Positions 30,728 through 48,463 of a stretch of 64,000 nt of DNA are shown in pieces. Under the pieces are notes generated by a model. It had not been told where the DNA came from. It saw only the letters and a program-made list of their open reading frames with translations, and made no database searches. The DNA lies in NCBI GenBank assembly GCA_963754085.1, contig CAVWFA010000016.1, forward strand, positions 451,213-515,212, written 5' to 3'. The DNA comes from Candidatus Aminicenantes bacterium (GTDB taxonomy: Bacteria; Acidobacteriota; Aminicenantia; Aminicenantales; Saccharicenantaceae). The position numbers were made by a program, and so were the translations under genes. How positions within the stretch are numbered: position 1 is the first letter of the stretch; every line of letters begins with the position of its first letter.

Positions 30728-30746
<19 letters not shown>

Positions 30747-30919
30747 AAACGCCGAGTTTCTCCATCACACAAAAAAGACAGACCGGCGTTTTCACCCTTC
30801 GGGCAAGCCGATCCGGCCGCATCTGCTTCGTTGCAAAGGGTTCGCAGTACCCCGAGTACAGCTTCACCCTTTGACGCCTCGCATCTGCAGCCGTCTCGGC
30901 TCGTGAATTGTCCAGGCTA
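30728..30919 (+). mobile_element. 192-bp MITE-like element, copy 1
   Basis: The termini are TAGCCTGGACCATTCATGA ... TCGTGAATTGTCCAGGCTA, a 19-bp terminal inverted repeat (TIR) with 16 of 19 positions complementary. The internal ~125 bp is about 95% identical to the reverse complement of 56873-56995. No coding capacity. Confidence 0.7.
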
Positions 30920-30951
30920 GCTGACGCCGGGCCGCCCGAGCCGCGTCGACC

Positions 30952-31494: not shown

Positions 31495-31495
31495 G

Positions 31496-32635: not shown

Positions 32636-32891
32636 GCTGCGCGACCTGCCGGCTCAGCCGGGATTTGTAGCGGCTGCCGGTGTTCTTCTTGATGGCCCCC
32701 TTCTTGACCGACGTGTCGATGGCCTTGGTGAGCGAGGGGAGCATCTTGACGGCGGTCTCGCGGTCCTTCTCCTCGATGGCTTCGCGCATCTTGCGCATCT
32801 GGGTGCGCAGGGCCGACTTGTTCTGGGTATTGACGGACTTCCGGCGGAGGCTGCGGCGGTGCTGCCGTACCGCTGATTTGTGACGGGCCAT
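32613..32891 (-). CDS. rpsT: 30S ribosomal protein S20
   Basis: MARHKSAVRQHRRSLRRKSVNTQNKSALRTQMRK, with AGAGGAGAAAG upstream. Confidence 0.9.
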   Translation of the reverse strand: MARHKSAVRQHRRSLRRKSVNTQNKSALRTQMRKMREAIEEKDRETAVKMLPSLTKAIDTSVKKGAIKKNTGSRYKSRLSRQVAQLSPAPAK

Positions 32892-32916
32892 ATCTTTCTC
32901 CTCTTGAAAGGGTCCT

Positions 32917-32945
32917 ATGATAGAATGTCCTGACTTTAAAGTCAA
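32917..32945 (-). promoter_or_regulatory. putative sigma-70 promoter of rpsT
   Basis: Minus strand reads TTGACT-N17-TATCAT, 25 nt upstream of the ATG. Confidence 0.5.
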
Positions 32946-32968
32946 ACGCCCGGGAGGACCCCGTTCCC

Positions 32969-34549
32969 ATGGAGCATGACGAGCGGAAGACCCGGTTGAT
33001 CCGGTCCACGGCCGCGGTCGCCGGGCCGACGCTGGTCAGCCGGGTCCTCGGCTACGTCCGCGACCTCCTTCAGGCCTATTATCTCGGCACCGGCACGAGC
33101 GCCGACGCTTTCATCATCGCCTACACCATTCCCAATTTGTTCCGCCGCCTGACAGGCGAGGGGGCCATGACCCCGGCCTTCGTCCCGGCGTTCACGGAGC
33201 TCAAGGGCGGGCCGGACAGGCAGCGGTTGTGGCGCTTCGGCAATGTCTTCTTCTGGGACCTGGCCCTGGTCATGGCCGTCACGACAGCCGTGGGCATCTT
33301 CTTCGCGCCGGGCCTGGTCAAGGTCATCGCCTACGGCTTCGGCGATGTCGCCGGGAAATGGGGCCTGACCATCTTCATGACCAGGGTCATGTTCCCGTAC
33401 CTGTTCTTCATCAGCCTGGCCGCCCTGGCGAGCGGCATCCTGAACTCCTTCGGCCGCTTCTTCATCCCGGCCTCGACCCCCATCCTGTTCAACATCGTCA
33501 TCATCGCCGCCGTGGCCGGCTGGGCCCGGGACGCCCGCGAGCCGGCCCTCGTCTTCGCCGCCGCCGTCGTCATCGGCGGCATCCTCCAGCTCGCCCTCCA
33601 GGTCCCGTTCCTGTGGAAGGAGGGGATGCGCTTCACCTTCGGCTTCTCCTTCCGCGATTCGACGGTCCGGCGGGTCGGGCGGCTCATGGTGCCCGGGATC
33701 TTCGGATCGAGCGTCTACCTGATCAACTTCGCCCTGAGCCGGATGATCGCCTCCGGCCTCGAAGAGGGGAGCGCCTCGGCGCTTTACTATGCGTCCCGCA
33801 TCGAAGAGCTGACCTTGGGGCTCTTCTCGATCGCCCTGGCCGCGGCCCTCCTCCCGGCCTTTTCCGAGCACGTCGCCGCGCGCGATATCGGCGAGCTGAA
33901 GAAGACCCTCGGCTTCTCGCTCAAGCTCACGGCCGTCGTCAGCTTCCCGGCCGCGGCCGGGCTCATGGCCATCAACGCGCCGATCATGCGCACGCTCTTC
34001 GAGCGCGGCCAGTTCGGCCAGGGGTCGACGGCGGTCTCGGCGTCCTGCCTGCTCTTCTTCGCGCTCGGCCTGCCCTTCGTTTCGGGGGTCAAGGTCGTCG
34101 CGCCCGCGTTCTTCTCCCTCAAGGATACCCGGACGCCCGTGGCCATCGGCATCGTCGTCGTGTTCGTGAACATCGCCGGGGCCCTCCTGCTCATGGGCTC
34201 TCTCCGGGTCAGCGGCCTGGCCCTGGCCTTGTCGCTGTCGCAAGCGCTCAACTTCGTTCTCCTCCTCGTCTGGCTCGGGCGCAAGATCGGGCCTCTCGAC
34301 ACGGCCCGCTGGGCGGTCCCGGCGCTGAAGGCCGCGGCGGCCGCGGCCCTGATGGGCGCGGCCCTCCGCCTGGCCTGGCCCCTTCTCCGCGTCGATGGGG
34401 CGGCCTTCGTCGTCCGGGCGGCCGCTCTGGCCGGCGCCATCCTCGCGGGCATCATCATCTATATCCTCCTGCTCAGGCTCGTCAGCCCGGCCGACTTGAA
34501 GAGCGTCGTCGGGCATCTGCGCCGGGCGGCCTCCAAGGAGAGCCCATGA
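32969..34549 (+). CDS. murJ: lipid II flippase MurJ
   Basis: 526 aa with [44 protein letters not shown]. Polytopic. Confidence 0.9.
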
Positions 34550-35013
34550 AGATCGTGCTGCAGCGGGTGAAAGAGGCCCGGGTCGAGGTCGAGGGCGTGA
34601 CGGCCGGCCGTATCGGCCGCGGCCTGTGCCTGCTCGTCGGCGTCGAGAAGGGCGACGGGGAGGCGGACGCGGAATACCTGGCCCGCAAGTGCGTCGAGCT
34701 GCGCATCTTCCCGGACGCCGAGGGCAAGATGAACCTCTCGCTGGCCGAGGCCGGCGGCGAGGTGCTGGCCGTGTCCCAATTCACGCTGGCCGGCTCGGTG
34801 CGCAAGGGCCGCCGGCCGAGCTTCGACGGCGCCGAGGCGCCGGCCCGGGCGGCCGAGCTGTTCGAGTCCTTCGTCGGCGCCGTCGAGGCGCTCGGCGTGA
34901 CCGTCGAGACGGGCGTCTTCCAGGCCCTCATGGAGGTCCACCTCGTCAACGACGGGCCGGTGACCTTCGTCCTCGGATCGAGGCCCGGGGCGGGCGGTCG
35001 GGACGAGGGGTGA
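34546..35013 (+). CDS. dtd: D-aminoacyl-tRNA deacylase
   Basis: [15 protein letters not shown]...SQFTLAG...RRPSF...NDGPVTF. It has an ATGA overlap with murJ. Confidence 0.9.
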
Positions 35014-35166
35014 GACCGGACCCCTTTTCTCACCTCTCGCGAGGAGGGTCGGGCCCTAAAAATCACCCCCCGATTCCCCGGACCGGGCCATGCCCGGCCC
35101 CCGGTCCTGCCGTAAGATCGGCCTGGACGACCGCGTGAGAACCGGTCTGCCCGCAGTGAGAGACGT

Positions 35167-37149
35167 ATGCCCATGAGCCGCTTCATCGCCAGACGGAAGG
35201 TCGAGAGCCTGCCCCGGATCCCTCTGCGCGGGACGATCGACCTGACCTACCGGTGCGGCAACGACTGCCGCCACTGTTGGCTTCGGCTCGCGCCGGATGC
35301 GGCCGAGCGCGCGGCCGAGCTGACGTCCGGCGAGATCCGCCGCGTCGTCGACGAGGCCCGGAAGCGGGGCTGCCGGGAATGGGCCATCTCCGGCGGCGAA
35401 CCCATGCTCCGCCCGGACTTCGCCGAGGTCTTTTCGGGGATCATCGAAAAGTCCTTCCGGTATACGCTGAACACGAACGGCACCCTGATCACCCCGGCCA
35501 TCGCCCGCCTGCTGAGGCGGCCGGGCGCCAAGCTCGTCGCGCTCTACGGCGCCACCTCAGCGGTCCACGACGCGGTCACGCGCCAGCCGGGCTCGTTCGC
35601 GGCCCTCGAGCGGGGCGTTGCCTATCTCCGGGAAGCGGGGGCGGCTTTCACGGTCCAGGTCGTTCCCATGCGGACCAACATCGCCGATTACGAAGCCATG
35701 GTCCGTCTGGCGGGATCGTGGAGCCCGAGCTGGCGGGTGGGCGCCACCTGGCTCTATCTCTCGGCCTCCGGCGACCCGCGGCGCAACCGCGATATCCGGG
35801 CCGAGCGCCTGGACCCGGCCCGGGTGGCCGAGCTCGATCAGGTCTTTGCCGGAGGCGCCGGCGATCCGGACAGGGACGCCGCGATCGCGTGCGCCGCCGC
35901 GCGCGCCGTGACCGAAGGGCTCTATGCGGCCTGCCTGGCCGGCCGGCGCGATTTCCACATCGATCCGTACGGCGGCCTGAGCTTCTGCTCGTTCGTCAAA
36001 GACCCCGCCCTGCGCCTCGACTTGAGATCGATGAGCTTCGCCGAGGCTTGGGAAGAGCGCCTGCCGCGGCTGGCGGAGGCCGTCAGGCCGTCCGCGGCCT
36101 ACGGCGACGGATGCGGGACCTGCGACCTGAGGGCCGACTGCAAGTGGTGCCCGGTCTACGCCTATCTCGAGCACCGGGACCACTCGGCGAAGATCGAGGG
36201 GCTCTGCGCGATCGCCCGGGAAACGCGCCGGGCCCGGACGGAATGGCTCGGCGCGCACCGCCGCCGCTTCGGCATCGCCGGCCTCGCGGTCGACGTCGAG
36301 TCCGACCTGCCGATCACCGACGGGACGTTCGACCCCAAGTTCGAGCCCTTTCGGGTCCCGGCCGACGGGCCGGCCGATATCGTCCTCCGCCATCACTTCT
36401 CCCTGCCCGACCTCGACGCCTTCGACCTGGGCCGGGAGGTCTACCGCCGGGCGCCCTGGGCGATCTTCCGCAAAGACTCGTCCTGGATCTACGTCATGAT
36501 CTCCCCCGATCCGTCCGACGCGACGGTCCACCGCGTCATGGTCTTCGACGACGGGCACACCCGGGGCCGCATCTACAGCCCGTCGGACGGCTTCTTCCGA
36601 TCCGGCGGCCTCGATTCGCTGGCTCTGCTGCCCTCGGACCAGCTCGTCCTGGCCCGGGCCCTGCCGGCCTTCGGCGGCCTCTATGTGCATGCGGCGGGGG
36701 TGGACATGGGCGGGCACGGCCTCGTGTTCGCGGGCCCGTCGGAAGCCGGCAAATCGACCATGGTCAAGCTCATCGGGGACCGGGGCCGGGTCCTCTGCGA
36801 CGACCGGGTCATCGTCCGCAAGAGCGCCGGGGGGGTCCGCGTCCACGGGACCTGGAACCACGGCGAGATCCCGCGCGTGTCGCCGGCTTCGGCGCCCGTG
36901 CGCGCGGTCTTCTTCCTTCGACAGGCGAAGACGAACCGCCTCGACCGCGTCGAGGATCCCCGGGCCGTGCTGGCCGATCTCCTGCCCCGCCTGGTCCGGC
37001 CGCTGGTCTCGTCCGACTGGTGGGAGCGGGCCCTGGCCCTGGCCGCCGAGATCGTCCGCGACGTGCCGTTCTACGACCTGTCCTTCGACCGGAGCGGGGA
37101 CATCGTCCGCGTCCTCGAGGAATTCCTGGGCCAGGCGGACGGGCCATGA
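35167..37149 (+). CDS. radical SAM/SPASM peptide-maturase-like enzyme fused to a C-terminal HPr-kinase-related P-loop domain
   Basis: 660 aa. The radical SAM motif is CGNDCRHC, followed by SGGEPMLRPD. The SPASM Cys cluster is CGTCDLRADCKWCPVYAYLE. From about residue 380 the sequence reads YVHAAGVDMGGHGLVFAGPSEAGKSTMVKLIGDRGRVLCDDRVIV (P-loop at nt 36733-36759). Confidence 0.85.
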   Translation: MPMSRFIARRKVESLPRIPLRGTIDLTYRCGNDCRHCWLRLAPDAAERAAELTSGEIRRVVDEARKRGCREWAISGGEPMLRPDFAEVFSGIIEKSFRYTLNTNGTLITPAIARLLRRPGAKLVALYGATSAVHDAVTRQPGSFAALERGVAYLREAGAAFTVQVVPMRTNIADYEAMVRLAGSWSPSWRVGATWLYLSASGDPRRNRDIRAERLDPARVAELDQVFAGGAGDPDRDAAIACAAARAVTEGLYAACLAGRRDFHIDPYGGLSFCSFVKDPALRLDLRSMSFAEAWEERLPRLAEAVRPSAAYGDGCGTCDLRADCKWCPVYAYLEHRDHSAKIEGLCAIARETRRARTEWLGAHRRRFGIAGLAVDVESDLPITDGTFDPKFEPFRVPADGPADIVLRHHFSLPDLDAFDLGREVYRRAPWAIFRKDSSWIYVMISPDPSDATVHRVMVFDDGHTRGRIYSPSDGFFRSGGLDSLALLPSDQLVLARALPAFGGLYVHAAGVDMGGHGLVFAGPSEAGKSTMVKLIGDRGRVLCDDRVIVRKSAGGVRVHGTWNHGEIPRVSPASAPVRAVFFLRQAKTNRLDRVEDPRAVLADLLPRLVRPLVSSDWWERALALAAEIVRDVPFYDLSFDRSGDIVRVLEEFLGQADGP

Positions 37150-38324
37150 CCGCCAAGAGCTTCGTCCGGAAGGTCCCCTCGGGGACGTCCGGCCTGTGGC
37201 GCACGGCGGCCCCGAAGCTCGCCCGGCTGGACATCGAGCTGACCGAACGGTGCAACTGCGCCTGCCTGCACTGTTCGGTCGCCCGGCCGGCCGGAGATGC
37301 CGAGGCCAAGGCCCGGGAGTGGCCCGCGGAACGGTGGACGGCCCTCCTCGACGAGGCCGCCGGACTGGGCTGTCTCGTCGTCCGGCTGACCGGCGGCGAA
37401 CCGCTTCTGCGGAGCGACTTCGAGGAGATCTACCTCCACGCGCGAAAGCTCGGCTTGAGGGTGATGCTCTTCACCAACGCCACGCTCGTCACGCCGCGCC
37501 TGGCCCGCCTCCTCAGGGACGTCCCGCCGCTCGAGGCGGTCGAGATCTCGATCTACGGGATGACCCGGGAGTCGGGCGAGGCCGTGACGCGCGCTCCGGG
37601 CTCGTTCGCGGCCGCGCGCCGCGGGCTCGGTCTTCTGGCCGAGAGCGGCGTCCCCTTCGTCGTCAAGGGCGCCGTCCTGCCGCCGACGCGCGGCGAGGCG
37701 GACGAATTCGAAGCCTGGGCGGCCGGTCTCTCCGGAAACGCCGGCCCCGCCGCGTTCGCCGTGCTGTTCGACCTCCACTCGCGGCGCGACGCGGCGCGGA
37801 GCGCGGTCATCGCCGGATTGCGGTCCGGCGGCGACGAGTTCGTGCGCTTCTCCCGGCGTCACGGCGACGAAGCCGTCGGCGAATGGGGGGAATTCTGCGG
37901 CCGCCCCGGCGGGGCCCGCGGCGACCGTCTCTTCATCTGCCTGCCGGCGGCCGCCTCGGCCTCGGTCGATCCGTACGGCCGTCTGCAGTATTGCCTGGGC
38001 CTCCGCCATCCGGCGGCCCTCTACGACCTGGCCGCGGGATCGCTCCGCGAGGCCGTGACGGAGTTCCTGCCGCGGCTCCGGGAGACCCGGGCCGCGGACC
38101 CGGCCTATCTCGAACGCTGCGCCCGGTGCTTCCTCAGGGGCCTCTGCGCGCAATGCCCGGCGAAGTCGTGGGCCGAGCACGGGACCCTCGACTCGCCGGT
38201 CGAATACTTCTGCGGCGTCGCTCACGCCCAGGCGGTCGCCGCCGGCCTTCTGAAACCGGGGGAGAAGGCCTGGACCGTCCGCGACGGGGCCGAACGGGCG
38301 AAAATAAGGAGGAACGGATCATGA
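37146..38324 (+). CDS. radical SAM/SPASM domain protein (second)
   Basis: 392 aa with an ATGA overlap with the previous gene. Motifs are CNCACLHC, TGGEPLLRSD and CARCFLRGLCAQCPAKSWAEHG. It is part of track ORF 35253..38324. Confidence 0.85.
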   Translation: MTAKSFVRKVPSGTSGLWRTAAPKLARLDIELTERCNCACLHCSVARPAGDAEAKAREWPAERWTALLDEAAGLGCLVVRLTGGEPLLRSDFEEIYLHARKLGLRVMLFTNATLVTPRLARLLRDVPPLEAVEISIYGMTRESGEAVTRAPGSFAAARRGLGLLAESGVPFVVKGAVLPPTRGEADEFEAWAAGLSGNAGPAAFAVLFDLHSRRDAARSAVIAGLRSGGDEFVRFSRRHGDEAVGEWGEFCGRPGGARGDRLFICLPAAASASVDPYGRLQYCLGLRHPAALYDLAAGSLREAVTEFLPRLRETRAADPAYLERCARCFLRGLCAQCPAKSWAEHGTLDSPVEYFCGVAHAQAVAAGLLKPGEKAWTVRDGAERAKIRRNGS

Positions 38325-38626
38325 CGGGAAAGATCGAACTGGGCCGGGCCTACCGCCCTTCCGACGATGTCGTCGTGCGGGAGATCGAGGGCGAGATCGT
38401 CATCGTGCCCCTGACCTCCGGCATCGGGGACCTCGAGGACGAGCTGCTGACCCTCAACGAGACGGGGCGCGCGATCTGGGCGCGCCTCGACGGCTCGCGG
38501 CCGCTGGCCGCGGTCGTCGCGGAGCTCGAGTCGGAATACGAGGACGCGGAGGGGGAAGTCCCGGTCGACGTCGTCGGCTTCATGCAGGAGCTCTATGACC
38601 GGCGGATGATCGTGGAGAAGAGCTGA
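38321..38626 (+). CDS. PqqD-family peptide chaperone (RiPP recognition element)
   Basis: 101 aa with an ATGA overlap. YRPSDDVVVREIEGEIVIVPL...LLTLNETGRAIWARLDGSRPLAAVVAELESEY...DVVGFMQELYDRRMIV. Confidence 0.8.
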   Translation: MTGKIELGRAYRPSDDVVVREIEGEIVIVPLTSGIGDLEDELLTLNETGRAIWARLDGSRPLAAVVAELESEYEDAEGEVPVDVVGFMQELYDRRMIVEKS

Positions 38627-38631
38627 AGAGC

Positions 38632-39129
38632 ATGGACAAGCCGGCCGGCGCGCGCGTCGTTCCCGGAGGGGAGATCGCCCTCGACGGGAACGATCTCGCG
38701 GGCTTGATGCGGGCGGTCCTCGAAAAGGGGAGGGCCTTCCGCTTCGAAGCCCGGGGGGCGAGCATGCACCCGGTCATCCGCGACGGGGACATCGTCACCG
38801 TCCGGCCCCTGGCCGGCCGCGGAACGAGGACGGGCGACGTCGTCGCTTTCGTCCATCCCGTCACGGGCGGGGTCCGGATCCACCGGGTCGTCGGGGCCGG
38901 CGAGACGGGCTACCTGCTCAAGGGCGATAACGCCCTCTGCGAGGACGGCGCCGTCGCTCGGGACGCCGTGCTGGGGCGGGTCGCGCGGATCGAGCGCGAG
39001 GGGCGGACCGTCCTCCTCGGACCGGCCCTCCGCTCCTCTCTCATCGCCCGGCTGTCGAGGACCGCCTGGTTCACCCGTCTCGCCCGGCGCCTCCGCCGGA
39101 CGCTCGGCCGCAGCGACAGGAGGACATGA
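38632..39129 (+). CDS. S26-family (Sec11/SipW-like) signal-peptidase-type serine protease
   Basis: 165 aa. The Ser motif is GASMHPVIRDGDIVTV and the Lys motif is YLLKGDNALCEDG. The C-terminal tail is basic and amphipathic. Confidence 0.7.
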   Translation: MDKPAGARVVPGGEIALDGNDLAGLMRAVLEKGRAFRFEARGASMHPVIRDGDIVTVRPLAGRGTRTGDVVAFVHPVTGGVRIHRVVGAGETGYLLKGDNALCEDGAVARDAVLGRVARIEREGRTVLLGPALRSSLIARLSRTAWFTRLARRLRRTLGRSDRRT

Positions 39130-39130
39130 G

Positions 39131-40258
39131 ATGGCCAAGGGATTCGTCGTCCGGCGGCCGCTTCCCGAGTTCGGCCTGTGGGAGAAGATGGCGGACGGCC
39201 GGGCCGTCTTCAGCTTCGACCTCGAAGCGACGGCCCGCTGCAACCTCGATTGCCGGCATTGCTACATCAACCGGCCGGCCGGCGACCGGGCGGCCCGGAA
39301 GCGCGAGCTCGGCGTCGACGAGATCGGCCGCATCGGCGCCGAGGCGGCGGCGCTGGGCGCCGTCTGGTGCCTCCTCACCGGCGGCGAGCCGCTTCTCCGG
39401 CCGGACTTCTTCGATCTCTACCAGGCCCTGCTCAGCAAGGGGCTGCTCATCTCCCTCTTCACCAACGCCACGCTCGTCAGCGACGAGCACGTCCGGTTCT
39501 TCAGGAAGTTCCCGCCGCGGGACATCGAGGTGACCGTCTACGGGGTGACCCGGGAGACCTACGAGCGGGTGACGCGCACGCCCGGGTCCTTCGACGCCTT
39601 CATGCGGGGGCTCGACCGGCTCCTCGCCGGGGGCATCACCGTCCGGCTCAAGGCCATGGCTTTGCGCTCGAACAAACACGAGCTCCCGGCCATCGGGGAT
39701 TTCTGCCGGGCCCGGACCAAGGACTACTACCGTTTCGACCCCCAGCTGCATCTCCGCTTCGACCGCGACGAGTCCCGGAACACCCTGATCCGGGCCGAGC
39801 GGCTCAGCCCCCGGGAGGTCGTCCGGCTGGAGCGGGCCGATCCCGAGCGCTTCGGGGCCCTGGAGGCCGCCTGCGACGAGATCCTTCCGGCCCCGGCCGC
39901 CGAAGGGGCGGGCGTCCCCGTATGCCGCCACATCTTCCGCTGCGGCGTCGGTCAGAGGAGCTTCGTCGTCGGGCCCGAGGGCCATCTGCGGCCGTGCCTG
40001 TCGCTGAGCCATCCGGATTTCCTCTACGACCTCAGGAAAGGCAGTCTGGCCGGCGCCTGGACCGGATTCCTGCCGAAGGTGCTGCGGCGGGAGTCCGACA
40101 GGCGGGAATACCTGGAGAAGTGCGGGCGGTGCCCGATCGTCAACTTGTGCCTCTGGTGCCCGGCCCACGCCTATCTGGAGACCGGGGAGCTCGATCTGCC
40201 GGTCGAGGACTTCTGCCGGGTGGCGGAAGCCCGGGCGGAGGGCCTAAAATCCGGTTGA
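39131..40258 (+). CDS. radical SAM/SPASM domain protein (third)
   Basis: 375 aa, starting 1 nt after the peptidase stop. Motifs are CNLDCRHC, TGGEPLLRPD and CGRCPIVNLCLWCPAHAYLE. Confidence 0.85.
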   Translation: MAKGFVVRRPLPEFGLWEKMADGRAVFSFDLEATARCNLDCRHCYINRPAGDRAARKRELGVDEIGRIGAEAAALGAVWCLLTGGEPLLRPDFFDLYQALLSKGLLISLFTNATLVSDEHVRFFRKFPPRDIEVTVYGVTRETYERVTRTPGSFDAFMRGLDRLLAGGITVRLKAMALRSNKHELPAIGDFCRARTKDYYRFDPQLHLRFDRDESRNTLIRAERLSPREVVRLERADPERFGALEAACDEILPAPAAEGAGVPVCRHIFRCGVGQRSFVVGPEGHLRPCLSLSHPDFLYDLRKGSLAGAWTGFLPKVLRRESDRREYLEKCGRCPIVNLCLWCPAHAYLETGELDLPVEDFCRVAEARAEGLKSG

Positions 40259-40283
40259 CTTTGCCGTTCGTTCGACTTAATAT
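40255..40283 (+). promoter_or_regulatory. putative sigma-70 promoter dedicated to the small Cys-rich ORF
   Basis: TTGACT-N17-TAATAT. The -35 overlaps the stop of the third rSAM gene. This is an AT-rich island in otherwise GC-rich DNA. GGAGGA lies 10 nt before the ATG at 40319. Confidence 0.55.
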
Positions 40284-40318
40284 ATTGTTAAGGAAGCGTT
40301 TATGGAGGATCTGAGGCC

Positions 40319-40501
40319 ATGAAAAAGAAGTGGCGAACGCCCGAGCTCATCGTTCTCTTCAAGGGGCGTCCGGAGGAGACCCTGCTGTGCCATTGCAAGC
40401 ACACGACGGCCCCGCCCGTGGCGCCCTATAACCACAAGGACAACTGCACGTCGAACCCCGTCTGTTGTTCGGCGTGCGTCGATATCCAGTACGCTTCCTG
40501 A
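40319..40501 (+). CDS. candidate RiPP precursor peptide (60 aa, 6 Cys)
   Basis: MKKKWRTPELIVLFKGRPEETLLCHCKHTTAPPVAPYNHKDNCTSNPVCCSACVDIQYAS. It has a strong SD and its own promoter, and sits immediately 3' of the rSAM/PqqD/peptidase operon. Cys residues are at positions 24, 26, 43, 49, 50 and 53. Confidence 0.65.
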   Translation: MKKKWRTPELIVLFKGRPEETLLCHCKHTTAPPVAPYNHKDNCTSNPVCCSACVDIQYAS

Positions 40502-40527
40502 CCGGGCGCCTGTCCCGGACCCGGGCA

Positions 40528-41043
40528 TCAGGTGATGCGGACCCCGCTCGTCTTCTCGATGGCCTCCTCGGCCGCCGCCCGGACATAGGGACTGGGGTCC
40601 TTTTTCAGCCGGACGAGGAGCCGGACGGCTTCCTCGCCGCCGATCTCGCCCAGCGCTTCCGCCGCCGCCCGCCGGACGTCGACGTTCGTGTCGCCGGCCG
40701 CCGCGCCGATCCCCGGCAGGGCTTCGCGAAGCCGCCGGAGCCCGATGACCGACAGGGCCGAGCTCCGGGCGTACCAAGGCGGCTGACGGAGGCGCCGGAC
40801 GGCCCAGTCGGCCCGCAGCGCCGGCCGCCCGCAGAGCCCCCGGACGACGAGCGCCCGGACGGCCTCGTTGGGATCGGCCAGCATCTCCCAGAGGAGCTCC
40901 TCGACCCAGGCCAGGCGGACCTTGACGCAGGCGGAGATGATCCGCTGTCTTTTTGTCTTGTCCGGGGTCAGGCCGAGCTTGAAGACAAAGGCCCGGCAAA
41001 CGGGGGAGAGGCTCGACTCGTCAGGGGGGCGGTGTTCGTCCAT
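40528..41043 (-). CDS. HEAT-repeat (PBS-lyase-like) protein
   Basis: 171 aa starting at MDEHRPPDES. Repeats include DPNEAVRALVVRGL, DTNVDVRRAAAEALGEIG and DPSPYVRAAAEEAI. It is the C-terminal part of track ORF 40528..42312. Confidence 0.6.
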   Translation of the reverse strand: MDEHRPPDESSLSPVCRAFVFKLGLTPDKTKRQRIISACVKVRLAWVEELLWEMLADPNEAVRALVVRGLCGRPALRADWAVRRLRQPPWYARSSALSVIGLRRLREALPGIGAAAGDTNVDVRRAAAEALGEIGGEEAVRLLVRLKKDPSPYVRAAAEEAIEKTSGVRIT

Positions 41044-41045
41044 CC

Positions 41046-42284
41046 TCAGACCAGGTCCAGGATGTGCCCCATCTTCTCTTTCTTGGTCTTCAGATAGCGC
41101 AAGTTGCAGGCGTTCGGCGGGACCTCGAGCGGCACGCGCTCGACGATCTCCAGGTTGTATCCGGCCAGGCCGACGAACTTCCGGGGATTGTTGGTGATGA
41201 GCCGCAGGCGGCGGACGCCGAGCGCGACCAGGATCTGGGCGCCGATGCCGTAGTCGCGATGGTCGGGCTTGAAGCCGAGCTGGCGGTTGGCTTCGACCGT
41301 GTCGGCGCCCTCGTCCTGCATGGCGTAGGCGCGGATCTTGTTGGCCAGGCCGATGCCCCGGCCTTCGTGGTTCAGGATGTAGAGGACGACGCCCCGTCCC
41401 TCCTTCTCGATCATCTCCATGGACAGCCGGAGCTGCTCGCCGCAGTCGCAGCGGGCCGAGCCGAAGGTGTCGCCGGTCAGGCACTGCGAGTGGGCCCGGA
41501 CGAGGGCCGGCTCGCCGCCGCCGACGTCGCCCTTGACCAGAGCGACGTGGTGATCGCCCCGGATCGTGTCCTCGTAGACGTGGATCCGGAAGTGGCCGTG
41601 CGAGGTCGGCAGGTCCGTCTCCTCGAGCTTGCGGACGTGCGTCTCGTGGTGCATGCGGTAACGGATGAGCTCCGCGATGGTCAGGATGGGGATGTCGAAG
41701 CGCCGGCTGATCTCCTCGAGCTGGGGCATGCGGGCCATGGAGCCGTCCTCGTTCATGACCTCGCAGATGACGCCGGCCGGCGTCAGGCCGGCCAGGCGGG
41801 CCAGGTCGACGGCGGCCTCGGTCTGTCCCGCCCGGCACAGGACTCCGCCTTCGACGGCCTGCAACGGAAAGACGTGACCCGGGCGGGCCAGGTCGTCCGG
41901 CTTCGTGGCCGGGTCGACCGCGGCCAGGATGGTCCGGGCCCGGTCGTGGGCCGAGATGCCGGTCGCCACGTCCTTCTTGGCGTCGATGGAAACGGTGAAG
42001 GCCGTCTGGAAGCGGGCCGTGTTCTCGCTGACCATGAGGGGGAGGTGGAGCTCGTCGAGCCGCTCCCGGGTGAGGGGCAGACAGATGAGCCCGCGGCCGT
42101 GGCGGGCCATGAAGTTGACGATCTCGGGGGTGACCTTTTCGGCGGCCACCATGAGATCGCCCTCGTTCTCGCGGTCCTCGTCGTCGACGATGACGATCAT
42201 CCGTCCGGCCCGGACGGCGTCCAGGGCCTGTTCGACGGGAACGGTCTTCTGTGCTTCGGTCATGGGAGCGATCGGGACAGCCAA
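41046..42284 (-). CDS. ribBA: bifunctional 3,4-dihydroxy-2-butanone-4-phosphate synthase / GTP cyclohydrolase II
   Basis: 412 aa with [14 protein letters not shown], then the C-terminal CDCGEQL and GRGIGLANK. Confidence 0.95.
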
Positions 42285-42850
42285 TTATACAGGTATTTTC
42301 CGACCATGTCACACTCGAGGTTGACGCTCGCGCCGGGGCGCAGGGCGCCCAGGTTCGTCGCGGCGAGCGTCGTCGGGATGAGCTCGACTTCGAAAGAGGA
42401 CGGGCCGAGCGAGGCGATGGTCAGGCTGGCGCCGTCGACGGCGACCGACCCCTTGGGCACGAAGAACAAGCGAAGAGCGGCCGGGAAGGAGATGCCCAGC
42501 CTCTTTCCGGCCGGCCGCGAGGACGACCGGACGACCTTGCCGACGGCGTCGACGTGGCCGCTGACGAGGTGCCCGCCGAGCGGAGCGGCCAGGGTCAGGG
42601 GCAGCTCGAGGTTCAGCCGGTCGCCGGGCTTGAGCGCGCCGAGGGTCGTTTTGGCCAGGGTCTCGCGGGACAGATCGAACCGGAGGGCGTCCCGGTCCGC
42701 GCCCGTGAGCGTGAGGCAGACCCCGTTGACGGCGACGCTGTCGCCGGCCGCGAGCTTGCCCGCGAGCCCGGGGGCCTCGACGGCCAGCTCCGAGCGGCCT
42801 TTGCGGTAGCCGCGGAAGCGGCCTTGGTGGGAGATGATGCCGGTGAACAT
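42260..42850 (-). CDS. ribE: riboflavin synthase
   Basis: [12 protein letters not shown]...[12 protein letters not shown]...[11 protein letters not shown] (duplicated lumazine-binding repeat). It has an ATGA overlap with ribD. Confidence 0.9.
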
Positions 42851-43950
42851 CAGAAATATCCTTCCACGATGATATCGCTCCCGTTCGAGAACTCGCGCGT
42901 CCTGTTGAGCCGGACGGCCCCGGCCACGGCGGCCGCGCCCGCGCCGCCGACGAAGCCCGGCGCGGCGGCGCCGCCGACCAGCAGCGGCGCGAAGGTCAGG
43001 ACGGCCTTGTCGGCGAGCCCGCCTTCGACAAAGGACGTGAACAGGCGGCTGCCGCCTTCGACGAGCAGGGCCGAGATCTCGAGCCGGCCGAGCTCGGCCA
43101 GCACGCGGTCGAGGCGCCAGACCTTCGCCCCGCCGGGAGGGAGGAGGACTTCGACCCCGAGGGCCCGGAGGGCCCCGGCCTTCTCCGCCGGCGCCTCGCG
43201 GCCGGCGAAGACGACGATCCGGCCGCGGTCGAGCGTCGTGAGCAGCCGCGCGGCCGTGGGGAAGCGAAGGGAGGGATCGAGGACCGCCCGAAGGACCTTC
43301 TTCGCCGGCCAGTTCGCGTGGCGCACGGTGAGGAGCGGATCGTCGGCGACGAGCGTTCCCGCGCCGATCATGAGCGCGTCCTGTTCGCCCCGGAGGAGGT
43401 GCACGTAGTCGCGCGTCGCGGCCGAGGTGATCCACTTCGAGTCGCCCGTGCGGCAGGCGATCTTCCCGTCGAAGGTCAGGGCCGCCTTCAGGGTGACGAA
43501 GGGGACCTTCCGGACGATGAACTTGGCATAGGCCTCGTTGACGGCGGCGTTCCTCTCCGCGAGCAGCCCCACGGAGACGTCGAGCCCCGCCTCCTCGAGC
43601 CGGCGGATGCCCTTGCCGTGGACGATGGGATTGGGGTCGGCGGCGGAGACGACGATCCGGGCCAGTCCGGCGCCGAGGACCGTGTCGACGCACGGCGGCG
43701 TCCGGCCCCAGTGGACGCACGGCTCGAGGGTCAGATAGAGCGTCGCGCCCTTGGCCCGTTTCCCGGCCATGCCCAGGGCCAGGATCTCGGCGTGGGGCTG
43801 GCCCGGCTCGGCGTGATAGCCGTGGCCGACGACCGTCCCGTCGCGGACGACGACCGCCCCCACGAGCGGATTGGGGCTCGTCCGGCCGCGGGCCTTCTCG
43901 GCCAGCCCGTAAGCCATCTCCATCCAGCCGAGATCGCGCGCCGGCGTCAT
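42850..43950 (-). CDS. ribD: bifunctional riboflavin-biosynthesis deaminase/reductase
   Basis: 366 aa with HAEILAL and TLEPCVHWGRTPPC. Confidence 0.9.
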   Translation of the reverse strand: MTPARDLGWMEMAYGLAEKARGRTSPNPLVGAVVVRDGTVVGHGYHAEPGQPHAEILALGMAGKRAKGATLYLTLEPCVHWGRTPPCVDTVLGAGLARIVVSAADPNPIVHGKGIRRLEEAGLDVSVGLLAERNAAVNEAYAKFIVRKVPFVTLKAALTFDGKIACRTGDSKWITSAATRDYVHLLRGEQDALMIGAGTLVADDPLLTVRHANWPAKKVLRAVLDPSLRFPTAARLLTTLDRGRIVVFAGREAPAEKAGALRALGVEVLLPPGGAKVWRLDRVLAELGRLEISALLVEGGSRLFTSFVEGGLADKAVLTFAPLLVGGAAAPGFVGGAGAAAVAGAVRLNRTREFSNGSDIIVEGYF

Positions 43951-44837
43951 GACAGAAGCGCCTCCACGAACTCGCGGGGCGAGAAGTCGGCCAGGTCGTC
44001 CTCTCCTTCTCCGAGGCCGAGATACCGGATGGGCAGGCCGAGCTCGGCGGCGACGGCGATGGCCGCCCCGCCCTTGGCCGTGCCGTCGACCTTGGTCAGG
44101 AAGACGCCCGTCAGTCCCGAGAACTTCAGGAACTCGCGGGCCTGCTGGACGGCGTTCTGGCCGACCGTGGCGTCCAGGACGAGGAGGGCCTCGAACCGGG
44201 CGCCGGGGAGCTCCCGGGCGAGGACCCGCCGGACTTTTTCGAGCTCGTTCATGAGGTTGGTGTTGGTGTGGATGCGGCCGGCGGTGTCGACGAGCAGGAC
44301 CTCGCCCTGCTGGGCTTTGAACGACCGCGCGGCGTCGAAGACGACGGCCGCCGGGTCGGCCCCGTACGAGCCCTTAATGACCGGGACGCCGAGCTTCCCG
44401 CCCCAGAGCGCGAGCTGTTCCTGGGCCGCGGCCCGGAAGGTGTCGGCCGCCGCGAGCACGACCCGCCGTCCCTCGCGCTTGAAGCGGGCGGCGAGCTTTG
44501 CGGCCGACGTCGTCTTGCCGCCGCCGTTGACGCCGACCATGAGGATGACGGCCGGACCGTCCCCGCGCGCCGGCCCCGCGCCGGGAGGAGAGAGCAGGGC
44601 GATGAGCTCGTCTTTGAGGGCCCGCTCGAACCCGGCCTCGTCCCCGGCCTTGCCCGTCTTGGCCCGCAGCGCGGCGACGATCCTGCCGGCGGCCGGGACG
44701 CCGACGTCGGCAAGGAGGAGCGCCTCTTCGAGGCCGTCCAGGATCTCGTCCCTGCGCCGGCCGCTGCGGAACAGGTCCTCGACCCGGCGGAAGGCGTCCC
44801 GGGTCCGGGCCAGCTTTTCCCTCAGGCTTCCGAACAT
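43947..44837 (-). CDS. ftsY: signal recognition particle receptor FtsY
   Basis: 296 aa with GVNGGGKTTSAAKLA, DTAGR and TKVDGTAKGG. Confidence 0.9.
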   Translation of the reverse strand: MFGSLREKLARTRDAFRRVEDLFRSGRRRDEILDGLEEALLLADVGVPAAGRIVAALRAKTGKAGDEAGFERALKDELIALLSPPGAGPARGDGPAVILMVGVNGGGKTTSAAKLAARFKREGRRVVLAAADTFRAAAQEQLALWGGKLGVPVIKGSYGADPAAVVFDAARSFKAQQGEVLLVDTAGRIHTNTNLMNELEKVRRVLARELPGARFEALLVLDATVGQNAVQQAREFLKFSGLTGVFLTKVDGTAKGGAAIAVAAELGLPIRYLGLGEGEDDLADFSPREFVEALLS

Positions 44838-44846
44838 GGCCTTAAG

Positions 44847-44875
44847 ATTTTATTTATCAAGCGTTTAATTGTCAA
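44847..44875 (-). promoter_or_regulatory. putative sigma-70 promoter of ftsY (near-leaderless)
   Basis: Minus strand reads TTGACA-N17-TAAAAT. The -10 ends 9 nt before the ATG at 44837 and there is no SD sequence. Confidence 0.5.
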
Positions 44876-44922
44876 TGGCGGCCGTTGAGCGAGGCCGGTG
44901 ATTATGCTAGAGTGAGGGCGCC

Positions 44923-46614
44923 ATGAACCCCGCCGTCTGGGTCGTCCATCCGCCGCGCGCCGAGGCCGACGCGCTGGCCCAGGCTCTGGACCTCCCTCCG
45001 GCCATCGCCCGGGTCCTCGTCAACCGCAAGATCCTGACGGAGGAGGCCGCCCGGAAGTTCCTGTTCGGCGACCTCGACGGGCTCCACGATCCCTACCTGA
45101 TGAAGGATATGGACAAGGCCGTGGCCCGCGTCGAGACGGCGATCGCCCGGGGCGAGAAGATCCTCATCTTCGGCGATTACGATGTCGACGGCGTCCTTTC
45201 GACGGTCATGCTGAAGAAAGCCCTGACCACCCTGGGCGCCCAGGTCGACTACTTCATCCCGGAGCGCCTGACCGACGGCTACGGCATCAAGGACGATCAC
45301 GTCCGCATCCCGGTCGAGCGCGGCGCGTCCCTGGTCATCAGCGTGGACTGCGGCATCAAGTCCGTCGAGTTCACCGCCCGGGCCCGGGAACAGGGCATCG
45401 ACGTCATCATCACCGACCATCATCGTCCCGGCGACACGCTGCCCGCGGCGGCGGCCGTGCTCGATCCGGTCCTGCCGGATTCCGGCTATCCGGACGCGGG
45501 ACTGGCCGGCGTCGGTGTCACCTTCAAGCTCGTCCAGGCCCTGCTCGAGAAGGCCGGCCGTCCCGCCGGTCTGCCCCACTACATGAAGCTCGTCTCGATC
45601 GGCACGGTCGCCGACGTCGCCGAGCTCAAGGGCGAGAACCGGCTCTTCGTCAAGCTCGGTCTCAAGGGGCTGCGCGACGTCGCCAATCCCGGCCTGCGCA
45701 GCCTGATCGAGGCCTGCGGCCTCAGGAGCCGTAAGATCTCCGAGGGCGACCTCGGCTTCCGCCTCGGGCCCCGCATCAACGCCGCCGGCCGGATGGGCCA
45801 GACCGATCTCGCCGTCCGCCTCTTCTTCTCGGAGGATCCGGCCGAGACCCTGGCGCTCGTCCAGAAGCTCGACGACCTCAACGCCCAGCGGCAGAAGACG
45901 GAGGAGCGGATCTTCAACGAAGCCAAGGACCGGGTCGAGACGCGCGGGCTCGACAAGAAGTACAAGTGCCTCGTCCTGGGCAGCCCCGACTGGCACCGCG
46001 GCGTCATCGGCATCGTCGCCTCCAAGCTCAAGGACGCCTTCAACCGGCCGGTCGTTCTCTTCCACTACGAGGACGGCCAGGCCCACGGCTCGGGCCGGAG
46101 CATCTCCGAGGTCCCGCTGATCGATCTCCTGGAGGACTGCAAAGAGCACTTTCTGAGCTACGGCGGGCACCGGCTGGCCGTGGGCTGCACCCTCCCGACG
46201 GCCGGCCTGGCCGCGTTCCGGGCCGCGCTCAACCCGCTGGCCGACGCCCGCATCTCCGAGGACAACCTGAAGAAGAAGATCAAGATCGACGGGCCCCTCG
46301 CGTTCGCCGACATCGACGAGCGGTTCATGGGGGTCTTCGCGCTGCTCGTCCCGTTCGGCGTCGGCAATCCCAAGCCTCTGTTCATGGCCGACAACGTCGA
46401 GGTCATCAGCGACCCCCAGGTCCTGAAAGGCAAGCACCTGAAGTTCCTGGCCCGCCAGGACGGCCGGGTCCTCGAGGCCCTGGGCTGGGACAAGGCCGAT
46501 TGGCGCCACCTGATCCGCCGCGGCAGCCGGGTCAGCCTGGCCTTCTCGATCATGACCTCGGAATACCTCGGCGAACGGAGGGTCAACCTGTCCCTCGAAG
46601 ACCTGAGGACCTGA
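44923..46614 (+). CDS. recJ: single-stranded-DNA-specific exonuclease RecJ
   Basis: 563 aa with IFGDYDVDG, DCGI, ITDHHRPG and GGHRLAVG. Confidence 0.9.
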   Translation: MNPAVWVVHPPRAEADALAQALDLPPAIARVLVNRKILTEEAARKFLFGDLDGLHDPYLMKDMDKAVARVETAIARGEKILIFGDYDVDGVLSTVMLKKALTTLGAQVDYFIPERLTDGYGIKDDHVRIPVERGASLVISVDCGIKSVEFTARAREQGIDVIITDHHRPGDTLPAAAAVLDPVLPDSGYPDAGLAGVGVTFKLVQALLEKAGRPAGLPHYMKLVSIGTVADVAELKGENRLFVKLGLKGLRDVANPGLRSLIEACGLRSRKISEGDLGFRLGPRINAAGRMGQTDLAVRLFFSEDPAETLALVQKLDDLNAQRQKTEERIFNEAKDRVETRGLDKKYKCLVLGSPDWHRGVIGIVASKLKDAFNRPVVLFHYEDGQAHGSGRSISEVPLIDLLEDCKEHFLSYGGHRLAVGCTLPTAGLAAFRAALNPLADARISEDNLKKKIKIDGPLAFADIDERFMGVFALLVPFGVGNPKPLFMADNVEVISDPQVLKGKHLKFLARQDGRVLEALGWDKADWRHLIRRGSRVSLAFSIMTSEYLGERRVNLSLEDLRT

Positions 46615-46618
46615 GACG

Positions 46619-48460
46619 ATGGGCGCTCAACGGGCTGCGGCGCCGGTGAGGCTCGCCCGGATGACCGCGGCCGTCCTCATGATCGTGTTGTCCGTGATCG
46701 TCGTCGTCCGGCTGGCCGGCCGGCGCGGCGGACCCCCTCCCGCGGCCGTCGCGCCGCCGCCCGCAGACCGGGTCGTCGACGTCAAGGCGCACGTCCGGCA
46801 CGAGGAGTACAAGGACGGACGTCTCGTCGCCGTGGTCCGCGGCGACTCGTTCTCGCTCGGCCCCGACGGCCGGAACCGCCTGCAGGGTTCGGTGGACGTG
46901 GTCAATTACGGGCCCGCCGGCGAGACGACCTCGCATCTCGCGGCGGACGAGGTCGCCTACGACAAGGGGACTCTCGTATTCGAGATCAAGGGCCGGGCCC
47001 GGATCGAGGCGGGCGGCGTCGTCCTCGACGGCGAGGCCTTTTCCTACGACAAGGCCAAGGGGCTTTTCGGCACGACGGCGGGGGGGCGCTTCTCTTCGAA
47101 AGCGCTGAGCGGGAGAGCGCCGGAGATCTCTTACAGCGAAAACAAGGACGAGGTCCGGCTGGGCGGTGGATTCATCGCCGAGATAGCGGCCTCGGAAGGA
47201 GAAGCGTGCCGCTTGGCCCTGTCCGGCCGTTCTCTTCGATACGACCGGCGCGGGAGAAAGGGCCGGATCGAGGAGCGGGCCTTGATCGAAGGGACGGATT
47301 TCCGCGCCGCGGCGGGCGCGGTCGCGTTCGTCGCCGCGGCCGACGAGACCGGTCTCGATGACGCTGTCCTCGAGGACTCGGCTACGGTGGTTCTGAGGGG
47401 CCAGGACGCTTCGGCCGGCGGCGAGATCCGAGCCGACCGGATCGAGGTCACCTTCTCCCGCGAACCGTCAGGGATCGGTCTCGAGGCCTTCGGCCGGGCC
47501 ATCTTGTCCCTTCGTCCCCGCGGAGATGAAGTCGAAACGCTCAGTGCGCCCAAGGCGCTGGTGAGTTACTCTCGTGAAGACCGGAAATGGACCTGGTCCG
47601 CGCGGGGAGGCGTGCGAGTTGAGATCAGCGGGGCCGGTGGTCCGGGACGCACGCTTGTTGGCGAGGCAGCCTGGTTCGACGGGGGAGGCATCGTGCATGC
47701 CGCGGGAGCCGCCGGCCTGCCCGCCGTCGCCGATTCTGCGGACGCCCGGATCGAAGCCCCGTCGATCTTAGTGGTCCCCGGAATGGGCGAACTCCTGGCA
47801 ACGGGAGGCGTCAACGGGTCCGTCAAGAAGGGGGATGGGGGTCGGCGGACCGGCTTCTTCGACCGTGGAGAGGACGTTATTGTCTCGTGCAGAACGTTGG
47901 AGGTCAGGCCCGATCTATCGACGATGTTCCTGACCGGGACAGCCCTGGTCCGCCAGGGCGACAACTCCATCCGGGCCCAGAAGGTCGAGATCGCCGGCGA
48001 CGAGGGACGGATGAACGGCGGGGGAGGGGTGGTCGTCACTCTGGCTGAGCCCGGCTCCGACGGCCGGCCGGGCCGGACGATCGAGCTCACCGGCCAGGAT
48101 CTGGCCTACCAGCCGGAGACGAGGACCCTGACGGTGACCACGAAAGCGGCCCTCCGTCTGCCTGAGGCTCGGCTCGAGGCCGGGACGTTGTCGGCCGTTC
48201 TCGCCCCCGAGGGCCGGGGCCTCGAATCGCTCACGGCGCGGACAGCGGTCGTTGTCACCAAGGGCCGTTTCGAGGGCCGGGCCGAGGCCGCGTCCTACCT
48301 GGCGGACGGCGAGCGGATCACGCTCACCGGGGGTCCCGTTCTGACCGACGGCAAGGGCGGTTCCGCCCGGGGGGCCAAATTGACATTCGATCTGGCCGAT
48401 GATAAGATTTTGATCGAGAATGAGGGACCGGGAAGAGCGACGACCGTCGTCAGATCGTGA
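46619..48460 (+). CDS. membrane-anchored LptC/LptA (OstA)-like periplasmic LPS-transport protein, extended
   Basis: 613 aa with an N-terminal TM anchor, then a repetitive beta-rich sequence ending AKLTFDLADDKILIENEG. It lies immediately upstream of lptB. The call rests on context plus weak motif similarity. Confidence 0.5.
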   Translation: MGAQRAAAPVRLARMTAAVLMIVLSVIVVVRLAGRRGGPPPAAVAPPPADRVVDVKAHVRHEEYKDGRLVAVVRGDSFSLGPDGRNRLQGSVDVVNYGPAGETTSHLAADEVAYDKGTLVFEIKGRARIEAGGVVLDGEAFSYDKAKGLFGTTAGGRFSSKALSGRAPEISYSENKDEVRLGGGFIAEIAASEGEACRLALSGRSLRYDRRGRKGRIEERALIEGTDFRAAAGAVAFVAAADETGLDDAVLEDSATVVLRGQDASAGGEIRADRIEVTFSREPSGIGLEAFGRAILSLRPRGDEVETLSAPKALVSYSREDRKWTWSARGGVRVEISGAGGPGRTLVGEAAWFDGGGIVHAAGAAGLPAVADSADARIEAPSILVVPGMGELLATGGVNGSVKKGDGGRRTGFFDRGEDVIVSCRTLEVRPDLSTMFLTGTALVRQGDNSIRAQKVEIAGDEGRMNGGGGVVVTLAEPGSDGRPGRTIELTGQDLAYQPETRTLTVTTKAALRLPEARLEAGTLSAVLAPEGRGLESLTARTAVVVTKGRFEGRAEAASYLADGERITLTGGPVLTDGKGGSARGAKLTFDLADDKILIENEGPGRATTVVRS

Positions 48461-48463
48461 GCC

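Follow-up and report, generated by a model that had tools for sequence, protein, structure and literature searches.

The open reading frame (ORF) at 40319..40501 of the DNA analysed here, a stretch of 64,000 nucleotides from contig CAVWFA010000016.1 of a Candidatus Aminicenantes bacterium (hereafter called the window), very probably encodes the substrate peptide of the gene cassette at 35167..40501, which codes for three radical S-adenosylmethionine (rSAM) enzymes with SPASM domains, an HprK-like kinase domain, a protein of the PqqD family, and a signal-peptidase-like protease. As judged from the sequences, the peptide is most likely the precursor of a ribosomally synthesized peptide with post-translational modifications (RiPP), occurring in a previously undescribed combination of known modules. 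In the proposed maturation pathway, the WxxPxL motif of the N-terminal leader would bind as a beta-strand to the discrete PqqD-type RiPP recognition element (RRE), which would present the peptide to the three rSAM-SPASM enzymes. These would crosslink the conserved Cys residues, with Cys-derived thioethers as the most likely chemistry, and the first, kinase-fused rSAM enzyme may serve the extra Cys of a CxxC unit beside the C-terminal tail. The fused HprK-like domain would phosphorylate the C-terminal Ser60, located seven residues past the last Cys, and the signal-peptidase-like Ser/His protease would cut off the leader at a site between about E20 and K27.

An earlier note, made from the letters of the DNA alone, had proposed an ORF for a Cys-rich peptide of 60 amino acids with Cys at positions 24, 26, 43, 49, 50, and 53 and Ser as the last residue, and this ORF is present exactly as described:

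40319..40501, plus strand: precursor peptide gene, 60 amino acids plus stop codon, MKKKWRTPELIVLFKGRPEETLLCHCKHTTAPPVAPYNHKDNCTSNPVCCSACVDIQYAS

As judged from its composition and substitution pattern, the ORF is a real, conserved coding gene. A frame comparison in the window, which has a G+C content of 67.6%, gave a G+C content at third codon positions (GC3) of 0.82 for the plus frame, compared to 0.53 and 0.59 for the overlapping minus-strand ORFs. All 19 distinct orthologous DNA sequences are exactly 183 nt long, with 39, 29, and 57 variable sites at codon positions 1, 2, and 3, respectively, and their ratio of nonsynonymous to synonymous variation (pN/pS) of 0.19/0.61 = 0.31 indicates purifying selection on the precursor. 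A rival reading holds that the ORF is no gene at all, the signal coming from one of the two minus-strand ORFs (40277..40999 and 40359..40586) or from non-coding sequence in the 3' part of the rSAM operon. A conserved minus-strand frame and a lack of conservation of the ORF beside homologous cassettes were among the outcomes which, according to the earlier note, would overturn its reading, and neither applies. One antisense frame is indeed open in most orthologues, as is often seen opposite GC3-rich genes, but it is interrupted by stop codons in three aligned loci (L019, L118, and L120), and both the GC3 values and the excess of third-position substitutions in the plus frame likewise show that neither of the minus-strand ORFs is the true gene. 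Moreover, homologues of the peptide with equal length and C-terminus occur at 31-50% identity in other phyla, and an Rfam scan of 40200-40600 returned zero matches, which leaves the non-gene explanation with a practically negligible probability.

A protein search with the window peptide yielded 12 homologous clusters of 73-93% identity, nine of which are full-length with 60 amino acids and end in YAS, while the other three represent frameshifted or truncated variants. The precursor gene and the same cassette order are found in six Aminicenantes loci (L001-L006) with the same housekeeping genes on the flanks, and even a divergent cassette, whose fusion protein is just 59% identical to that of the window, carries an ORF of 60 amino acids at the equivalent place. 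An 8-kb block of a metagenome-assembled genome of Candidatus Aminicenantes (L055) is 96.6% identical to the window.

Beyond these orthologues, the predicted peptide is a member of a large family spanning many phyla, for which no published description was found. A profile built from nine orthologues and searched against 1.84 billion representative proteins (E <= 1e-3) matched 686 representative clusters (50% identity), and nearly all of the 150 matches listed out of these 686 are 55-70 amino acids long. A literature search, with most subscription journals outside its coverage, returned no description of either the cassette or the peptide. The family shares the leader consensus M-K-K-x-W-x-x-P-x-L-[IV]-[IV]-L-x-[RK]-G-x-P-E-E-x-[VIL]-L-x-x-C-K, which is followed by a variable stretch rich in Pro, Gly, Ser, and Asn with two to three more conserved Cys. 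The window peptide is divided accordingly:

40319..40399, plus strand: conserved leader block, residues 1-27, WxxPxL[IV][IV]LxKGxPEExLLxxCK with the RRE-type WxxPxL motif and C26-K27
40400..40498, plus strand: variable Cys-rich core, residues 28-60, with the family Cys residues C43, C50, and C53, the subfamily-specific C49, and the tail C53-x6-Ser60

In the profile-derived family alignment, W5, P8, L13, E20, and C26 are invariant, and conservation reaches at least 90% for L10, L23, and K27; C24 of the window peptide also falls in the leader block. Leaders with a [Y/W]xxPxL motif are known from crystallographic data to bind as a beta-strand to the discrete RREs found in lasso peptide systems and in those of the linear polyphosphorylated peptides (LPPs) (PMC13381572). 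The presence of this motif throughout the family supports the previous proposal that the peptide's N-terminal portion serves as a leader recognized by the PqqD protein.

The assignment of the peptide to the cassette is supported by their conserved linkage. The putative precursor gene is the last one of a six-gene cassette (35167..40501), in which the genes abut or overlap. The five genes preceding it are:

35167..37149, plus strand: first rSAM-SPASM enzyme (rSAM1, residues about 1-365) with a fused P-loop kinase domain of the ScmC/HprK-like type (about 400-660), from Pfam Radical_SAM and, on homologues, PF27840 ScmC
37146..38324, plus strand: second rSAM-SPASM enzyme (rSAM2), 392 amino acids, start overlapping the previous stop, from GC3 frame plot and motifs, with all NCBIfam matches sub-threshold
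38321..38626, plus strand: discrete PqqD-family RRE, 101 amino acids, from Pfam PqqD (46.9 bits, cutoff 23.4)
38632..39129, plus strand: archaeal/ER-type signal-peptidase-I-like (S24/S26) serine protease, putative leader peptidase, from Pfam Peptidase_S24 and NCBIfam sigpep_I_arch (42.9 bits)
39131..40258, plus strand: third rSAM-SPASM enzyme (rSAM3), 375 amino acids, from Pfam Radical_SAM and SPASM

To follow the family across genomes, a degenerate DNA pattern of the leader only, which left the C-terminus unconstrained, was scanned over one genome per species. At least 119 loci, spread over more than 10 phyla, were detected in this way, with hosts from Chloroflexota, Desulfobacterota, Acidobacteriota, Aminicenantes, NC10, Omnitrophota, Planctomycetota, Actinomycetota, Chlorobiaceae, and others. 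Note that W-x-x-P-x-L was part of this pattern and is invariant by construction in the set derived from it. Altogether 128 peptides were extracted from these loci; the C-terminal residues given below refer to 123 of them, and the tail lengths to 120. Linkage was assessed by phmmer with six protein segments from the window on 8-kb blocks, which were not centred on the peptide. Orthologues of the cassette proteins were recorded beside the peptide in most loci, with E values of 1e-20 to 1e-250. Among the 119 loci, matches were found to rSAM1 in 89, to rSAM2 in 87, to rSAM3 in 89, to the kinase domain in 63, to PqqD in 62, and to the protease in 58. When the comparison was restricted to loci with 2.5 kb or more of the block on either side of the peptide, 32 of 37 carried a cassette protein, and this conserved linkage in the Aminicenantes as well as in distant relatives from many phyla, which the earlier note had asked for, supports the interpretation of the peptide as a precursor.

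The place of the precursor gene varies between the loci, where it precedes rSAM1, separates rSAM2 from PqqD, or follows rSAM3, and its copy number reaches up to six per locus. This maximum is seen in an uncultured Dehalococcoidia bacterium (L080:3586-7732), whose six tandem or interspersed copies have different cores, including one (3931-4101) that has lost the core Cys. A movable position and a variable copy number beside a constant set of enzymes represent the behaviour expected of a RiPP precursor. Two features generally used to recognize such precursors are found here, namely conserved linkage to modifying enzymes and a conserved leader motif that is combined with a hypervariable core, with an RRE encoded in the same cluster. 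An unbiased clustering of the flanking ORFs mostly returned shadow ORFs of the cassette genes, and just two of the clusters turned out to be real. They correspond to an ATP-binding cassette (ABC) exporter with fused transmembrane and nucleotide-binding domains and to a nucleotidyltransferase (NTP-transferase; PF14907, NTP_transf_5), which occur in about 20 loci each, all outside of the Aminicenantes, e.g., at L011:2821-5490 (minus strand) and L025:158-1717 (plus strand).

The precursor gene also has a conserved promoter and ribosome binding site of its own, consisting of the following elements:

40255..40283, plus strand: sigma-70-type promoter with -35 TTGACT (40255-40260), a 17-nt spacer, and -10 TAATAT (40278-40283)
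40291..40298, plus strand: conserved purine box AAGGAAGC between -10 and Shine-Dalgarno sequence, located where transcription is expected to start or directly behind that point
40304..40309, plus strand: Shine-Dalgarno sequence GGAGGA, with 9 nt between it and the ATG at 40319

Both the promoter, with its -35 element overlapping the stop of the last rSAM gene, and the GGAGGA sequence had been pointed out before, and both are borne out by the comparison of orthologous loci. A promoter scan of 6.8 kb (34400-41200) detected the precursor promoter as the single sigma-70-like site, compared to 0.1 sites expected from shuffled sequences. The TGA stop codon of the third rSAM gene lies inside the TTGAC sequence, which is invariant in 19 of 19 orthologous loci. 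A -10 element of the TAnnAT type follows at a fixed distance in 18 of them as aligned, the remaining one (L118) showing TATCAT displaced by one base, while the sequence of the spacer is free to vary. A purine-rich, GGAGG-like Shine-Dalgarno sequence is retained in most orthologous loci and degenerate in a few. The core of the purine box, [AGC]AGGAAG, is present in 18 of the 19 aligned upstream regions from Aminicenantes (L118 contains AAGGAAC), with the exact sequence AAGGAAGC in 11. This box might serve as a standby site for ribosomes, as an initially transcribed sequence, or as the site of a regulator. Transcription from the internal promoter may allow the precursor to be made in excess over the enzymes.

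The enzymes of the cassette look active and of the expected kinds, as indicated by their intact catalytic motifs. All three rSAM enzymes contain the CX3CX2C motif and the Cys motifs of SPASM domains. As implied in the earlier note, the HprK-like domain is fused to an rSAM enzyme, namely the first one (35167..37149), whereas PqqD is encoded by a separate gene. An AlphaFold2 (AF2) model of the fusion protein with a pLDDT of 80.8 matched in structure searches the folds of PqqE, SkfB, SuiB, and anSME with its N-terminal half, while its C-terminal half shows the fold of phosphoenolpyruvate (PEP) carboxykinase. PEP carboxykinase and the catalytic domain of HprK belong to one fold superfamily. Sub-threshold matches of the kinase-like domain to the NCBIfam models ScmC (56 bits), HprK_rel_B, HprK_rel_A, and hpr-ser and to Pfam Hpr_kinase_C all cover the P-loop region. 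Four residues of the domain (H508, K529, D545, and D546) do not vary among 53 homologues, which come from many phyla. They correspond to the His-Lys-Asp-Asp motif that kinases of lasso peptides have been shown to require (PMC9266682, citing Zhu et al. 2016). In the protease, S44 (in GASMHP), M45, H84 (in IHRVVG), R85, and D99 are retained by all of 55 homologues, whereas K97 varies among them. This pattern identifies the protein as an archaeal/ER-type signal-peptidase-like enzyme with a Ser/His(/Asp) active site rather than as a LexA-type Ser/Lys protease.

The number of Cys residues in the peptides varies together with the rSAM content of the cassettes. In cassettes without the rSAM1 domain, where the ScmC-like protein stands alone, 15 of 15 peptides contain three Cys, whereas 37 of 41 peptides encoded with an rSAM1-kinase fusion contain at least four (30 with four, including a C-x2-4-C pair, and seven of the six-Cys type of the Aminicenantes). 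Both types of cassettes occur within the Omnitrophota, Chloroflexota, Actinomycetota, and Desulfobacterota. The four-Cys cores are about four residues longer and resemble three-Cys cores with a C-x2-4 unit inserted before a constant tail. Together with the motifs in all three enzymes, this co-variation supports the previous suggestion that the Cys residues are the targets of the rSAM enzymes, and crosslinks of the thioether type would be the plausible outcome.

The C-terminal end is similarly constrained. Of 123 peptides, 120 end in a hydroxylated residue (110 in Ser and 10 in Thr), compared to a share of Ser plus Thr of about 21% among all core residues. The tail behind the last Cys comprises six residues in 83 and seven in 26 of 120 peptides, the window peptide having seven, and this near-fixed length suggests a functional coupling of the last Cys and the C-terminus. 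The penultimate residue of the peptides is a small one (A, T, P, G, or S). The prevalence of terminal Ser or Thr and the conserved H-K-D-D residues are consistent with the C-terminal Ser being the target of the kinase domain, as the earlier note had thought plausible.

Several points weigh against the pathway as proposed. A family peptide without any cassette protein inside 8 kb was recorded in five of the 37 centred loci (L077, L091, L098, L109, and L113 contain such peptides, which may be orphan or in-trans copies). The association between Cys number and rSAM1 (Fisher p = 1.6e-11 to 2.4e-10) is based on counts that ignore shared ancestry, and cassettes with two rSAM enzymes for three Cys do not fit a simple rule of one enzyme per Cys; in any case, the chemistry of a crosslink cannot be read from a sequence. 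The assignment of the kinase domain to HprK is weak by sequence, with an E value of 0.67 against the PDB and 0.019 against Pfam and all NCBIfam scores below cutoff. Neither an exporter nor an NTP-transferase was found within the 64-kb window, so the end product of the Aminicenantes may differ from those of other phyla. Finally, 10 of the 123 peptides end in Thr, while the LPP kinase LppK rejected a Ser3-to-Thr substitution and phosphorylates Ser3 of its core peptide instead of the C-terminus (PMC13381572).

The last of these points bear directly on an alternative in which the peptide is the substrate of the cassette, but the HprK-like domain phosphorylates another residue or has a non-kinase, ATP-dependent role. 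The Ser/Thr tail would then be required for rSAM chemistry, for closing a ring with the last Cys, or for the action of the NTP-transferase. Among known rSAM enzymes, MftC of mycofactocin biosynthesis modifies the C-terminal residue of its precursor. The alternative would account for the tolerated C-terminal Thr and for the fixed C-x5-6-[ST] spacing, which suggests an interaction between the last Cys and the C-terminus, and it agrees with the phosphorylation at core Ser3 by the same enzyme set in LPPs (PMC13381572). It is less easily reconciled with the absence of any other Ser or Thr conserved across the family, with the invariance of the H-K-D-D residues, and with the precursors of paeninodin-type peptides, which pair a WxxPxL leader with a C-terminal Ser targeted by the kinase (PMC9266682, PMC13381572). 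We regard it as a possible but somewhat doubtful explanation; the target residue of the kinase domain is the least certain point of the proposed pathway.

The closest characterised systems are the LPPs and the paeninodin-type lasso peptides. The LPP clusters of Bacillota, composed of LppA/B/K/N/S (Popov et al., Nat Commun 2026, PMC13381572), share with the window cassette a discrete PqqD-type RRE, a Ser/His/Asp peptidase resembling signal peptidase I of the archaeal type, an HprK-like kinase, and a leader with a [Y/W]xxPx(L/V) motif. Leader peptidases of this type were stated to be new to RiPP pathways (PMC13381572). The accessory pair of the LPP systems, a PF14907 NTP-transferase together with an MsbA-like exporter, is paralleled in the approximately 20 related loci mentioned above, but not in the window. 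In contrast to the LPP systems, the cassettes described here contain two to three rSAM-SPASM enzymes as core components, with the kinase often fused to one of them, and their leader WxxPxL[IV][IV]LxRGxPEExVLxxCK differs from the LPP leader YxxPxVLxHQxIxFETxxS. Moreover, LPPs carry their acceptor Ser at core position 3 of an otherwise linear product, whereas the peptides of the new family lack a conserved Ser near the leader end and show a Cys-rich core with a C-terminal Ser or Thr. The hosts also differ, being anaerobic Gram-negative bacteria and candidate phyla instead of Bacillota.

In paeninodin-type systems (PadeA/PadeK, ThcoK, SyanK), an HprK-like kinase phosphorylates the strictly conserved C-terminal Ser of the precursor (PMC9266682). 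They resemble the window cassette in the WxxPxL leader with a discrete RRE, the C-terminal Ser, and the HprK-like kinase with its H-K-D-D motif, and their pair of ABC exporter and NTP-transferase is shared with many of the cassettes outside of the Aminicenantes. These similarities, including the presence of PqqD in the cluster, might suggest that the peptide itself is a paeninodin-type lasso precursor, and some family members indeed show weak matches (E 0.01-0.07) to the lasso leader models NF033534 and NF033524, the only hits in Pfam and NCBIfam scans of the window peptide and 37 family members, which assigned no family. However, the window peptide itself matched none of the NCBIfam lasso models at E <= 10, and the cassette encodes neither a lasso cyclase (related to asparagine synthetase) nor a B2 cysteine protease, for which there is no room because its genes abut or overlap. 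It contains three rSAM-SPASM enzymes and a signal-peptidase-like protease instead, the latter presumably removing the leader of the Cys-rich peptide. A lasso precursor was rejected for the missing cyclase and B2 protease and appears very improbable.

Three further groups of systems were compared with the RiPP cassette proposed here. The SynChlorMet cassette (ScmC TIGR04249, ScmD TIGR04248, ScmE TIGR04250, ScmF TIGR04251) likewise contains two PqqE-like rSAM/SPASM enzymes, a PqqD homologue, and an HprK-related protein of the ScmC type, whereas the signal-peptidase-like protease and, in many cases, a third rSAM enzyme fused to the ScmC-like domain are additional features of the new cassettes. 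Membership in SynChlorMet was rejected, as all scores are 3- to 6-fold below the cutoffs (ScmC 31-56 against 125; ScmE/F 63-96 against 400; ScmD 20-34 against 100), even for the cassettes of Chlorobiaceae and Desulfobacteraceae. To our knowledge, no precursor has been assigned to SynChlorMet. The sactipeptides and ranthipeptides (subtilosin/AlbA, SCIFF, PapB/freyrasin) are similar with respect to their Cys-rich cores, rSAM-SPASM enzymes with RRE, and leader-dependent processing. The defining combination of an rSAM-SPASM maturase and a Cys-containing core is also found here, with three to six Cys in the peptides, but three separate rSAM enzymes, a kinase domain, and a signal-peptidase-like protease set the window cassette apart, and the characterised maturase families were rejected from their scores (StsB 72-89 against 625; PapB 46-57 against 340; AlbA 42-57 against 850). 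The biosynthesis systems of mycofactocin (MftA/B/C/E) and PQQ (PqqA/D/E) share a small precursor, a PqqD-type chaperone, an rSAM-SPASM enzyme, a peptidase, and the lack of an exporter, and the extreme C-terminus is important in MftA. They differ in the sequence of the precursor and in the presence of a kinase domain in the new cassettes, and their equivalogs were excluded as well (MftC 58-93 against 265; PqqE 52-66 against 381; PqqD 37.8 against 46).

A separate question concerns the fate of the product in the Aminicenantes. The cassette is flanked by housekeeping genes, with leuS, lptE, holA, rpsT (minus strand), murJ, and dtd on one side (28185-35013), and a HEAT-repeat gene, ribBA, ribE, ribD, and ftsY (all on the minus strand), followed by recJ, an lptD-like gene, lptB, and rpoN on the other (40528-50696). 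This block is syntenic in all Aminicenantes relatives, which points to vertical inheritance of the cassette rather than to a mobile island. Such a locus (leuS-lptE-holA-murJ-dtd ... ribBA), together with the absence of exporter and NTP-transferase, raises the possibility that the Aminicenantes product acts inside the cell. Instead of being processed for secretion, the 60-amino-acid product may stay intracellular as a Cys-rich protein with a metal or Fe-S site (CK...C...CxxC), as a cofactor precursor, or as a crosslinked subunit comparable to QhpC or mycofactocin, and the CxxC pair among the four conserved Cys would fit a metal site. Then again, 38 of 123 family members have just three Cys, too few for a Cys4 site, and the AF2 model of the peptide alone reached a pLDDT of 48 with no confident fold. 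In addition, the leader peptidase is never missing and its catalytic residues are intact, and about 20 related loci have an ABC exporter. An intracellular fate is considered rather unlikely on this basis; it would not conflict with a role of the peptide as rSAM substrate and contests only what becomes of the product.

Taking the comparison with known systems one step further, the cassettes could conceivably represent a previously undescribed RiPP class across many phyla, although we offer this only as a tentative view, with less expected for it than against it. In such a class, a paeninodin/LPP-type module would be combined with rSAM-SPASM enzymes, two or three per cassette, and the core would have acquired further Cys whenever an rSAM domain was added. 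In view of the near-invariant C-x5-6-Ser/Thr-COOH tail, the C-terminal phosphate might be used chemically, either for elimination to dehydroalanine and ring closure onto the last Cys or as a handle for the NTP-transferase, and the Aminicenantes product would perhaps be an intracellular cofactor or metal-binding peptide rather than a secreted antibiotic.

The proposed assignment concerns at least 686 clusters from more than 10 phyla, mostly of uncultured anaerobes, for which neither Pfam nor NCBIfam holds a model of the precursor, and all enzymes score below the curated equivalog cutoffs. With a candidate precursor at hand, the radical SAM enzymes, so far an orphan set, become part of a testable pathway, and the co-variation of Cys and rSAM domains and the fixed tail indicate which enzyme may act on which region of the peptide. 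The combination would join radical-SAM crosslinking with a kinase and with leader removal by a signal peptidase, which was first characterised in 2026, and the precursor may also help to find the substrate of the related SynChlorMet cassette.

At the 3' end of the precursor ORF, no intrinsic terminator was found, and the fold of the 3' region lacks terminator-like stability (z = -0.56). The stop codon of the peptide gene is separated by 26 nt (40502-40527) from that of the convergent HEAT-repeat gene. In a divergent Aminicenantes relative, the peptide gene is directly followed by a gene for a class I S-adenosylmethionine-dependent methyltransferase (L006:13626-14408), which could be an extra tailoring enzyme.

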